From Escherichia coli (lineage in GTDB: Bacteria > Pseudomonadota > Gammaproteobacteria > Enterobacterales > Enterobacteriaceae): a DNA stretch of 6,988 nt. Shown piece after piece: positions 600 through 5,778 of the stretch (within the stretch, counting starts at the first letter, position 1; the number at the start of each line of letters is the position of its first letter). The notes under the pieces were generated by a model. The model had not been told where the DNA came from. It searched no databases and saw only the letters and a list, made by a program, of their open reading frames with translations. A program made the position numbers and the translations under genes. The stretch lies in NCBI RefSeq assembly GCF_024298765.1, contig NZ_CP101214.1; one strand, written 5' to 3'.

Positions 600-748
600 A
601 TGGCTGAATAGCTATGCATACGGTTAAAATTTATCAGGTGCGATCGCGGCAGCTTTTCGGGTGGTTTGTTGCCATTTTTACCTGTCAGCAGCCGTGATCG
701 CGCTGAACGCATTTCAGCGGTGCGTACAATTAAGGGATTATGGTAAAT
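600..748 (+). other. cer-like Xer site-specific recombination (multimer resolution) site: ArgR-box-like element plus XerC/XerD core
   Basis: Core at 719-748 is GGTGCGTACAA (XerC arm) - TTAAGGGA (8-bp central region) - TTATGGTAAAT (XerD arm), which matches the ColE1 cer crossover site as I recall it. About 100 bp upstream (around 602-620) TGGCTGAATAGCTATGCAT resembles an ArgR box (TGAAT...ATTCA-like), at the spacing expected for the cer accessory region. Confidence 0.8.
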
Positions 749-751
749 CCC

Positions 752-1174
752 TTACTGTCTGCCCTCGTATCCATCGAGATAAACCGCAGAAATGGTGTCT
801 GCCATTAGTTTCATTTTTTTCGGCGAAGGCATATCGCTGTTTGTGTATTTTCTGCCAGCAAAGGCTGTTGTGCTCCGGAGTGAGTGAAAAAATTTTTCTG
901 AGTGGAATTCTTTTACACGTTGCTGTGCCGTTTCTGCTGATACTCCGGCTGCTTTGTCTTTCATCCCCATATCCCGGAACTGCTGAAAGAACGGGAGCAT
1001 CATACGTATGGTGTCTGCTTTCTGGGTGTAGAAGTTAGGATCAAATCCATCATCTGAAGCATAAACATAATGCCGGGTATGTCGTTCCAGGCTGGTCTTT
1101 GGTGTGCATCCTGTAAGAGCTATTGTTGCTGTTATCAGAGGTATCAGAAGCAGCCTGGCAGCGGCAGATTTCAT
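752..1174 (-). CDS. Small lipoprotein of unknown function (about 140 aa; possibly an entry-exclusion-type lipoprotein)
   Basis: ORF on the minus strand. AAGGAG lies 6 nt upstream of the second ATG (1174); the first ATG (1180) abuts the SD. N-terminus MKSAAARLLLIPLITATIALTGC has a basic n-region, a hydrophobic core and an L-T-G-C lipobox (signal peptidase II type). Thr at +2 suggests outer-membrane sorting. Confidence 0.65.
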   Translation of the reverse strand: MKSAAARLLLIPLITATIALTGCTPKTSLERHTRHYVYASDDGFDPNFYTQKADTIRMMLPFFQQFRDMGMKDKAAGVSAETAQQRVKEFHSEKFFHSLRSTTAFAGRKYTNSDMPSPKKMKLMADTISAVYLDGYEGRQ

Positions 1175-2095: not shown

Positions 2096-3742
2096 ATGGC
2101 TAAAGAACTAAGTGGATATGGACCAACTGCTGGTGAGTCTATGGGGGGAACAGGGGCGAATCTGAATCAGCAAGGTGGAAATAATAATAGTAATAGTGGG
2201 GTTCACTGGGGTGGTGGCTCTGGGCATGGTAATAATGGTGGTCAGGGAAATTCAAATTCATCTGGTTCTACATCAACTGTGATGAAAACCGGTGAGTCAT
2301 ATCTGACTCCGTGGGGTGATGTTGTCATTAATAATGATGGCCTTCCGGTGATGAATGGTATTGTTATGACAGAAGAGAATTCAACTCTGGTTGATAATCC
2401 ATTTGGAGGGGTCTCCAGAGTTCTTAATTCTTTAATTAGTGATATGCCATCACTTTTTGCAGAAAGCTCAGGAAATAACAACAATAACACTGCTTCAGTT
2501 AATACTGCACCAACGAATGCTCAGGTCAGTGATATGGATAAGAGTTCGAAGGTGGTGGGTAATGTAATTAATGAAAAACAAAAGCAGAAGAATAAAATTG
2601 CTACACAGATTAGTGAAAAACAGAAGAAAATCGAGGAGATGAAAAAAGTATTCAAGCATCATTCTTATCATGGTATCACTGATCTTGAGAGGGATGTTGA
2701 TGAGTTGCAAAAAAAATCAAATCAGCTTGATGCAGATATTAGCAAACTTAATTCTTATAAAAATACATTGCAAAGTAAAATTGGTGATGTGAATAAACAG
2801 AAGGAAGCTGAAGAAAAGGTTCGTGAAAATGCAGAGGTCGCTGAACATGAAACTCTTAATGAAGAGAAACAGGCGGTGGCGGAAGCAGAGAAGCGTTTAG
2901 CTGAGGCGAAAGCTGAACTGGCGAAGGCTGAAAGTGATGTACAGAGTAAGCAAGCTACTGTTTCCAGAGTTGCAGGAGAGCTTGAAAACGCTCAGAAGAG
3001 TGTTGACGTGAAGGTCACCGGATTTCCGGGATGGCGTGACGTTCAGAAAAAACTACAGCGTCAGCTTGAAGCTAAGCAGGCTGAGTACTCCGCAGTTGAA
3101 AATGAACTTAAGAATGCTGTTAGTTTCAGGGATGGTAAGGCCGCTGAGGTTAAAGAGGCAGAGCAGAAATTAAAAGAAGCTCAGGATGCTCTTGAAAAGA
3201 GCCAGATAAAAGATGCTGTTGATACTATGGTTGGATTTTATCAATATATAACCGAACAATATGGAGAAAAATACGCAAAAATTGCTCAGGATTTAGCGGA
3301 AAAGTCTAAAGGAAAGAAAATTCAAGGTGTTGATGAAGCTCTGGCAGCATTTGAAAAGTATAAGAATGTACTGGATAAGAAATTCAGTAAGGTTGATCGG
3401 GATGCTATTTTTAATGCGTTAGAGTCTGTTAATTATGATGAGTTATCTAAGAATTTAACGAAGATATCAAAGTCGCTTAAAATCACCAGTCGAGTATCTT
3501 TTCTATATGATGTTGGTTCTGATTTTAAAAATGCAATAGAAACTGGTAACTGGCGACCTTTGTTTGTCACGCTGGAGAAAAGTGCGGTCGATGTAGGTGT
3601 GGCAAAAATTGTGGCATTAATGTTTAGTTTTATTGTTGGTGTGCCTCTTGGTTTCTGGGGGATTGCAATTGTCACAGGTATTGTTTCTTCTTACATAGGG
3701 GATGATGAGTTGAGCAAACTTAATGAGTTGTTAGGGATTTAA
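2096..3742 (+). CDS. cka: Pore-forming colicin, most likely colicin K (548 aa)
   Basis: 548-aa ORF with a Gly/Asn/Ser-rich N-terminal domain (typical of Tol-dependent colicin translocation domains), a long charged coiled-coil central region, and a C-terminal domain with a hydrophobic helical hairpin ([35 protein letters not shown]) typical of pore-forming colicins. Length and N-terminus [15 protein letters not shown]... match my recollection of colicin K. SOS promoter upstream, immunity and lysis genes downstream. Confidence 0.85.
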
Positions 3743-4029
3743 TTTCTCTTTAGAGTGTAATATATGAAACTTGGCAATCCTACTGGGATTGCCATTAATA
3801 AATAAAACAATGCAGATAACTTGCATAAGTACCAGGGTTCTTTTTTTAACTTTGTATTTTCTTTGATATATCTAGATATGGTTAATTTAGAGTATGGATA
3901 TAGCAATACATGTATTGATGATATAAATATAAATAACAAAGGAGTGTTATCATTCTCGTTAAATATTAAAATAAGAATCCATGGTATAAGTGATTCAGGT
4001 AAATTATGTAGGTAGTATTTTAAATGCAT
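3739..4029 (-). CDS. cki: Colicin immunity protein (integral membrane, 96 aa), convergent with the colicin gene
   Basis: Minus-strand ORF immediately downstream of and opposite to the colicin gene, the arrangement typical of pore-forming colicin immunity genes. Very hydrophobic protein with several predicted TM segments ([35 protein letters not shown]). Its stop codon overlaps the colicin stop at TTAA 3739-3742. Confidence 0.85.
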
Positions 4030-4058
4030 AAGTATTTTTACTTTTGTTGGAAAGAAAT

Positions 4059-4190
4059 ATGAAAATAATAATTTTTCTAATTACAATATTATTCTTGTCA
4101 GGATGTCAAGCAAACTATATTCGTGATGTACAAGGAGGAACCGTTGCACCATCTTCGTCTTCTGAACTGACGGGGATCGCGGTTCAGTAG
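4059..4190 (+). CDS. ckl: Colicin lysis (bacteriocin release) lipoprotein, 43 aa
   Basis: ATG at 4059, TAG at 4188-4190; not in the ORF track because it is short. [43 protein letters not shown] has a signal peptide with an L-S-G-C lipobox and the conserved mature region of colicin lysis proteins. Last gene of the colicin operon. Confidence 0.85.
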
Positions 4191-4249: not shown

Positions 4250-4352
4250 ACGAAAAAACCGCCTGGGGAGGCGGTTTAGTCGAAGGTTAAGTCAGTTGGG
4301 GACTGCTTAACCGGGTAACTGGCTTTAGTGGAGCACAGATACCAAATGCTGT
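4250..4352 (-). ncRNA. RNA I antisense copy-number control RNA (about 100 nt)
   Basis: Minus-strand promoter: -35 TTGAAG (complement of 4383-4388), 18-bp spacer, -10 TACACT (complement of 4359-4364), start near 4352 (ACAGCAUUUGG...). 3' end has a hairpin, AACCGCCT / AGGCGGTT at 4257-4276, followed on the minus strand by a U-run. Fully complementary to the 5' end of RNA II. Confidence 0.8.
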
Positions 4353-5195: not shown

Positions 5196-5387
5196 TCAGA
5201 GGTTTTCACCGTCATCCCCGAAGCGTGCGAGGCAGCTGCGGTAAAGCTCGTCAGCGTGGTCGTGAAGCGCTTCGCAGATGTCAGCCTGGTCGTCGGCGTC
5301 CAGTTCATTCAGTTTTTCCAGCAGGGTCAGCGTCTGGCTTCTGATGAAGCGGGCCATGTTAAGGGCGGTTTTTTCCTGTTTAGTCAC
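5196..5387 (-). CDS. rom: Rom/Rop (RNA-one modulator), 63 aa
   Basis: GTG start at 5387. Translation VTKQEKTALNMARFIRSQTLTLLEKLNELDADDQADICEALHDHADELYRSCLARFGDDGENL is nearly identical to pBR322 Rop as I recall it. The track's longer 143-aa ORF is an upstream in-frame extension. Confidence 0.9.
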   Translation of the reverse strand: MTKQEKTALNMARFIRSQTLTLLEKLNELDADDQADICEALHDHADELYRSCLARFGDDGENL

Positions 5388-5430
5388 AGTTCTGTTTCTC
5401 CATGTGTGGGGAGTCTGTCGGAGGTTTTTA

Positions 5431-5778
5431 ATGATACCGGTGAAACGCGAAAGGATGCTCACGATACGGGTCACGGATGAGGAACATGCGCGGCTGCTGG
5501 CACGTTGTGAGGGAAAACAACTTGCGTCATGGATGCGTAAGGTCTGCCTGGGGGCACCGCCATCGAAAACGTCAGGTCTTCCGACACTGGCACCGCCGCT
5601 GTTGCGCCAGTTCGCTTCGGTCGGCAATAACCTGAATCAGATAGCCCGGAAGATAAACAGCGGACAGTGGTCGGGGCATGACCGGGTTCATGTGGTGGCT
5701 GCACTGATGGCCATCGGACGTGAACTGAGTGAGCTGAGGGATGAGGTCCGTAAACAGGGAGAACGGGATGATAGTTAA
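5431..5778 (+). CDS. mbeC: MbeC/MobC-family mobilisation accessory protein (likely ribbon-helix-helix)
   Basis: ATG at 5431 has GGAGG 6 nt upstream; a second in-frame ATG at 5455 (MLTIRVTDEEHARLLARCEGKQLASWMRK...) would give 107 aa. N-terminus matches the MbeC remnant I recall in pBR322. Divergent from rom; its stop region overlaps the mbeA start. Confidence 0.8.
   Translation: MIPVKRERMLTIRVTDEEHARLLARCEGKQLASWMRKVCLGAPPSKTSGLPTLAPPLLRQFASVGNNLNQIARKINSGQWSGHDRVHVVAALMAIGRELSELRDEVRKQGERDDS

Follow-up and report, generated by a model that had tools for sequence, protein, structure and literature searches.

A cer-family Xer resolution site with a predicted Rcd-type RNA on the plasmid of colicin K

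Results

Gene content and replicon of the plasmid

The DNA analysed here (the window) is a 6988-bp stretch that represents a complete ColE1-type plasmid carrying colicin K. A megablast search with the whole window returned many records of 6988-bp plasmids from E. coli, Shigella, and Salmonella, which were 99.8–99.9% identical over 100% of the length. The annotation of these plasmids includes cka and cki, the genes for colicin K and its immunity protein. The plasmid pColK-K235 (NC_006881, 8318 bp) has the same backbone and was 99.6% identical to the whole window in megablast. Its record additionally contains an IS2 transposase, and this IS2 is the only part of pColK-K235 that the window lacks.

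According to the ORF list, the colicin (548 aa) is encoded at 2096–3742 on the + strand, with an immunity ORF of 96 aa at 3739–4029 on the − strand and a lysis lipoprotein ORF of 48 aa at 4044–4190 on the + strand. Two overlapping palindromes of the CTGT-N8-ACAG type (ACTGTATATAAAACCAGT and AGTGGTTATATATACAGT) are located at 2020–2052 on the + strand, approximately 45 bp 5′ of the start codon of the colicin K gene (2096), and they resemble the double LexA (SOS) box that is typical of colicin promoters. The replicon was located by Rfam, which identified a ColE1-type RNAI (RF00106, 77.4 bits, E = 1.9e-13) at 4350–4250 on the − strand. The primer, RNAII, is therefore on the + strand, and the position of RNAI thereby shows how the resolution site is oriented with respect to the origin. 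In an ORF at 5196–5627 on the − strand, the C-terminal 63 residues (5196–5387, MTKQEKTALNMARFIRSQTLTLLEKLNELDADDQADICEALHDHADELYRSCLARFGDDGENL) resemble Rop/Rom when compared by eye only.

The site described below is flanked upstream by an MbeD gene (29–268, + strand; NF033829, E = 1.8e-35) and downstream by a gene for an Exc2 family lipoprotein (752–1180, − strand; NF033828, E = 4.5e-53). ColE1 cer has the same neighbors (mbeD upstream and exc2 downstream) and the same orientation relative to RNAII. The initial annotation stated that the stop of the lipoprotein gene (752) abuts the XerD arm; the stop codon indeed occupies 752–754 and is 3 bp away from the arm. Three ORFs on the + strand (406–627, 468–611, and 661–1038) lie over the site and were treated as non-coding. 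Both 406–627 and 661–1038, which overlap the site, were scanned, and neither gave a family match.

The recombination core

The core is located at 719–748 on the + strand and has the order GGTGCGTACAA-TTAAGGGA-TTATGGTAAAT. The first element is the predicted XerC binding arm (GGTGCGTACAA, 719–729), the second is the 8-bp central (crossover) region (TTAAGGGA, 730–737), and the third is the predicted XerD binding arm (TTATGGTAAAT, 738–748). All 30 positions (30/30) are identical to those of ColE1 cer (NC_001371, 3909–3938) and of pColK-K235. With up to 3 mismatches tolerated, the core is still unique in the window, and no match to it arose in 200 dinucleotide shuffles (0/200). The earlier impression of a very close match to the core of ColE1 cer can therefore be stated as complete identity.

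The similarity to ColE1 cer is not limited to the core. Between the first base of the Arg-box and the last base of the XerD arm (603–748), 134 of the 146 positions (92%) are identical to ColE1 cer. In the same segment, identity to pColK-K235 reaches 100%, as it does to other plasmids, with 68 records at ≥99% in that search. Alignment with ColE1 cer and related sites had been proposed as a check on the assignment, and these values gave a positive answer. Two substitutions distinguish pColK-K235 from the window in 574–602, which is upstream of the Arg-box and outside the conserved part of the site.

A sensitive blastn search with 560–760 found related DNA in at least 3809 enterobacterial plasmid records. 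The carriers are nearly all ColE1-type mobilizable plasmids, mostly from Klebsiella, Escherichia, Salmonella, Shigella, and Enterobacter. The matches repeatedly end at query position 189, which corresponds to 748 in the window, the last base of the XerD arm. In an alignment of 19 representatives, conservation begins at the Arg-box, continues through the XerD arm, and then stops abruptly. In other plasmids, homology past the XerD arm continues where exc2 follows the site and stops otherwise.

These results leave practically no room for the idea that the resemblance to cer is a relic, left by decay or arisen by chance, without present function. We found no point in its support; against it stand the core without mismatches, its absence from all of the shuffles, and the complete identity of the segment in many independent plasmids of E. 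coli, Shigella, and Salmonella. Moreover, the family-wide conservation and the covariation described below argue for selection.

The XerD arm is kept in all 19 compared sequences (19/19), four loci carrying the variant TTATGTTAAAT in place of TTATGGTAAAT. The central region is 6, 7, or 8 bp long across the family, and the XerC arms vary far more than the XerD arms, in agreement with a published description of the cer family (PMC5935869). Sampled cer-family sites from Klebsiella, Enterobacter, Citrobacter, and Salmonella plasmids share with the window the Arg-box, the GGGTGGTTTGTTGCC block, the covarying stem, and the XerC and XerD arms. However, their central regions have 6 or 7 bp instead of 8, their XerC arms are divergent, and their identity to the window is 69–88%. 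The 8-bp central region is the ColE1/ColK type, and examples of the 6-bp type are CGGATG and GCGACG. The central region in Ec_CP077218 is a 7-bp TAAGGGA, which has one T fewer. The same T was lost in an EcoRI plasmid, and that loss was suggested to be a product of crossover (PMC7315355).

Arg-box and accessory DNA

An 18-bp homologue of the Arg-box, the predicted ArgR site (GCTGAATAGCTATGCATA), was located at 603–620 on the + strand by alignment with the ColE1 box (GTTGCATAGGTATTCATA, 3794–3811), to which it corresponds column for column. Its inner 14 bp are one mismatch short of a perfect palindrome, and the TG-AT / AT-CA positions are invariant among the 19 aligned family members. The halves of the box are TGAAT/ATGCA in the window, whereas they are TGCAT/ATTCA in ColE1. 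The cer site has a single 18-bp Arg-box, located 98 bp upstream of the XerC site (PMC2409434). The distance from the end of the box to the first base of the XerC arm is 98 bp in ColE1 and 99 bp in the window because a single base is inserted at ~649. The ArgR-box-like palindrome that had been noticed about 100 bp upstream of the core is thus homologous to the ColE1 box and occupies the corresponding position.

The generic Arg-box consensus (WNTGAATWWWWATTCANW) has 4 mismatches in 603–620, and it also has 4 in the authentic ColE1 box. A consensus search of the window with ≤3 mismatches, for which about one chance match per window is expected, missed 603–620; the only matches were the LexA-like boxes at 2020–2052. 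Such a search is unusable as an Arg-box test here, since it missed the cer-type box and matched the LexA-like boxes instead. Because the consensus match alone is not significant, our assignment is based on homology and position.

The right (proximal) accessory arm, which links the Arg-box to the core, occupies 621–718 on the + strand. It is conserved in the whole family and belongs to the segment with 92% identity to ColE1 (603–748). T-tracts are found in this arm at 654–657, 665–667, and 675–679, with a spacing of ~10–11 bp, and phased A-T tracts have been described for cer (PMC2831885). The presumed left (distal) arm, which would contact PepA, was placed at 540–602 on the + strand from the published length of the accessory DNA, and its limit is approximate. 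This arm is not conserved: ColK and ColE1 show essentially no relationship upstream of the Arg-box (best local alignment score, 12). No PepA consensus exists, and the PepA site has been described as poorly defined (PMC2831885), with which the difference between the distal arms of ColK and ColE1 is consistent.

In cer, ~180 bp of accessory sequence precede the core (PMC2409434, PMC5357621). The start of the site was therefore set at ~540, which is probably about as far upstream as the functional site reaches. This left boundary is a guess because the DNA upstream of the Arg-box has no recognizable conservation. The initial annotation had delimited the element as 600–748. Its right end at 748 is borne out by the family comparison; the start at 600 is too tight, and ~540 is likelier from the published ~180 bp.

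On the + strand, the Arg-box comes before the core and faces RNAII read-through. A constant arrangement has been described for such sites, in which RNAII read-through meets the ArgR/PepA side before XerCD (PMC2831885). Since RNAII is on the + strand and the Arg-box lies before the core, this orientation rule holds in the window. Two other sites, psi of pSC101 and the chromosomal dif, resemble the present site by description in using the same recombinases and an 11 / 6–8 / 11 core layout (PMC5357621). The descriptions also set them apart: psi has ArcA instead of ArgR, dif depends on FtsK and lacks accessory arms, and neither is described as encoding Rcd.

Candidate promoter

Rcd is an RNA of ~70 nt encoded within cer (PMC4393325, PMC5357621, PMC5935869), and the hexamers of its promoter, Pcer, are unusually 15 bp apart (PMC5935869). 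A generic sigma-70 scan of 500–900 with 16–18 bp spacers found no promoter, and a custom scan that allows a 15-bp spacer was required. When 540–760 was scanned for hexamers with 15–18 bp spacers, only two 15-bp-spaced pairs were obtained on the + strand, and none was found on the − strand of this region. One pair is located at 604–630 (−35, CTGAAT, 604–609; −10, TAAAAT, 625–630) and overlaps the Arg-box. The other is located at 704–730 (TGAACG, 704–709; TACAAT, 725–730), with its −10 inside the XerC arm. The two pairs score alike (−35, 3/6; −10, 5/6; 15-bp spacer), and both are present in ColE1, where the counterpart of the 604–630 pair is TTGCAT-15-TAAAAT. The −35 is thus CTGAAT in the window and TTGCAT in ColE1.

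We infer that the candidate Pcer is the 604–630 pair, for three reasons. Its −10 TAAAAT is kept with ≤1 substitution in 16 of the 19 family members, at a constant distance to the hairpin described below. This 68-nt hairpin has the size of Rcd and begins 6–7 nt downstream of the pair. Finally, a transcript from the second pair would fall outside cer, in DNA that is unconserved in the family.

The other pair (704–709/725–730) deserves consideration because Pcer is repressed by XerCD (PMC4393325, PMC2831885), and a start in the core would imply direct repression by XerC occupancy. Transcription would then leave the site rightward and enter the 3′ end of exc2 in the antisense direction. There is a precedent for outward transcription in the rightward ecoRIR promoter of pMB1, which has a TTAAGG −35 (PMC7315355), and the score of this pair equals that of the first one in both the window and ColE1. 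However, Rcd is encoded within cer (PMC4393325, PMC5357621), and this transcript would lie outside it. The family homology stops at the XerD arm; therefore, no conserved RNA would be present downstream. The TACAAT hexamer is not conserved because the XerC arms vary (GGCAA, CATAA, and CGTAA), and the covarying hairpin is upstream of the pair. We consequently regard the assignment of Pcer to 704–730 as very improbable.

The central region itself contains TTAAGG, which serves the ecoRIR promoter PR of pMB1-type plasmids as its −35 (PMC7315355). In the window (730–758, + strand), it is followed 17 bp on by a poor −10, TACTGT (753–758), and a transcript from this pair would run antisense to exc2. 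The pair probably does not act as a promoter in the plasmid.

Predicted Rcd hairpin

Downstream of the 604–630 pair, 637–704 on the + strand is predicted to form a long stem-loop of 68 nt (MFE, −40.9 kcal/mol; z = −4.74 versus shuffles), which we assign as the body of the putative Rcd RNA. Its ColE1 counterpart has the same fold. Compared with ColE1, the window has a 1-bp insertion on the 5′ side of the stem, and several changes shift the register of the upper stem. The apical part of the hairpin contains an invariant GGGUGGUUUGUUGCC block, and the apical block GGGTGGTTTGTTGCC is the most conserved part of the whole site in the 19-sequence alignment.

RNAalifold analysis of 18 family members recovered the long stem, and compensatory changes were observed in 9 of the 20 consensus pairs, including switches from A-U to U-A, from C-G to U-A, and from G-C to A-U. 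With the consensus structure on the + strand, 94.1% of the cells (320/340) are paired. Double changes were found in 36 cells, compared with 12.0 ± 2.9 in shuffles. The covariation score was 0.395 against 0.185 ± 0.018 in shuffles, and 0 of 500 shuffles reached 0.395, a significance that is overstated because the shuffle control ignores the relatedness of the sequences. The shuffles agree in direction with the slid controls and with the count of independent pair types. When the 3′ partners were moved by 1–3 columns, ≤67% of the cells were paired and the scores were ≤0.165.

The pairing also distinguishes the two strands. If the + strand is the RNA, 66 cells are G·U pairs and 320/340 cells are paired; if it is the − strand, the values are 6 and 260/340. 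This asymmetry favors an RNA of the + strand over an inverted repeat that acts purely at the DNA level. The direction agrees with expectation: rcd always shares its direction of transcription with RNAII (PMC2831885), and RNAII is on the + strand; therefore, Rcd is expected as a + strand RNA.

A DNA-level role of the repeat was nevertheless weighed in its own right. In that case, the plasmid would have a working Xer/ArgR/PepA site, in which 637–704 would serve as accessory-arm architecture or provide protein contacts, and a functional Rcd would be missing. Four points favor it: both strands of the inverted repeat can fold, with similar z-scores; the hexamers of the promoter are weak (3/6 in the −35, 15-bp spacer); no clear terminator comes after the hairpin; and Rcd was studied in ColE1, which is a different plasmid. 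However, only on the + strand do G·U pairs keep the stem paired, and such an asymmetry would be unexpected for duplex DNA or for a cruciform. In addition, the family keeps both the −10 and its spacing to the hairpin, and the Rcd region of ColE1 is 92% identical. On balance, a purely DNA-level function is distinctly unlikely.

The possible Rcd-type RNA mentioned in the initial annotation thus gains support from the 15-bp-spaced hexamers at 604–630, the covarying 68-nt hairpin, and the G·U bias of the + strand, and we retain a predicted Rcd on this strand. The transcript likely extends from ~636 to 705–716. A search for a canonical intrinsic terminator downstream of the hairpin found none. A small 3′ hairpin at 701–719 was considered as a terminator and left aside, since its comparative support is weak: 78% of its cells are paired, it exceeds the shuffle controls unconvincingly, and the covariation gives it little backing. 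In Rfam, only RNAI was found in the whole window at the gathering threshold. At E ≤ 10, a search of 540–800 gave only chance matches to miRNA hairpins at 631–711, and no Rcd family was returned by either search.

Discussion

In this study, we characterized a segment of a colicin K plasmid that combines a core identical to that of ColE1 cer, an Arg-box homologue, 92% identity over 603–748, and the expected orientation. These features, all read from the sequence, indicate with a probability of about 0.93 that it is the cer-family Xer multimer resolution site of the plasmid and that it also encodes an Rcd RNA on the + strand. The proposal of a cer-like multimer resolution site, with which the analysis began, is in line with this assignment. 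The site is already known as the cer-type resolution site of the colicin K plasmid and is nothing new. PMC5935869 and PMC2409434 cite the ColK site as an experimentally studied analogue of cer (Summers et al. 1985, Mol Gen Genet 201:334).

A mechanism can be proposed by homology with cer. ArgR would bind the Arg-box at 603–620, and PepA would bind the flanking accessory DNA. In a plasmid dimer, the accessory DNA of the two directly repeated sites would be interwrapped. Only in this interwrapped complex would XerC (719–729) and XerD (738–748) exchange strands across the 8-bp TTAAGGGA; therefore, dimers would be converted into monomers and never the reverse. As long as the sites persist in a dimer, Pcer, which would be a weak promoter with a 15-bp spacer that overlaps the Arg-box, may fire. 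The resulting + strand Rcd of ~70 nt, encoded by the same DNA, would fold as the long hairpin at 637–704. It would stimulate tryptophanase and indole production and thereby delay division until resolution is complete. In ColE1, Rcd is produced by multimers alone; it binds tryptophanase, increases indole, and causes a delay in division (PMC4393325). Protein binding, recombination, promoter use, transcript ends, and the checkpoint are carried over here from ColE1 by analogy.

The ColE1 cer and the present site have in common the 30-bp core, the 134 of 146 identical positions from the Arg-box to the XerD arm, the position of the Arg-box, the 15-bp-spaced pair, and the fold of the hairpin, whereas the DNA upstream of the Arg-box is unrelated. 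The site departs from ColE1 precisely at the overlap of the Arg-box and the −35, and the left half of the box, TGAAT, is the consensus half-site of the Arg-box. One may speculate that the TGAAT/CTGAAT change shifts ArgR affinity and the basal activity of Pcer, or that 704–730 is an XerC-gated promoter antisense to exc2, but we consider these ideas unlikely. If the former were true, the change could give colicin K plasmids a different set-point of the dimer checkpoint. If the latter were true, the 704–730 promoter would be analogous to the ecoRIR promoter of pMB1, which uses the central region of cer.

By analogy with ColE1, the site would account for the monomeric state and the stable inheritance of the high-copy colicin K plasmid. 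The finding matters little beyond correct annotation. The plasmid records that we inspected list no feature for the site, and cer-type sites and Rcd are usually unannotated. The covarying alignment of 18 members could seed an RNA family model of Rcd, with which the sites on thousands of ColE1-type plasmids could be marked. In pColE1-MRE600 (CP014198.2), a CDS of 42 codons at 193–321, annotated as "plasmid mobilization protein", runs across the cer-homologous region, in which the core is located at 294–323. This CDS is probably a spurious gene call over a non-coding site. Two further records, NZ_CP082064.1 (17,997 bp) and CP104434.1 (20,384 bp), contain three copies of the site region each and more than one copy's worth of the ColK backbone. 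They may be multimers, cointegrates, or assembly artefacts, and as multi-copy records they bear on a site for dimer resolution.
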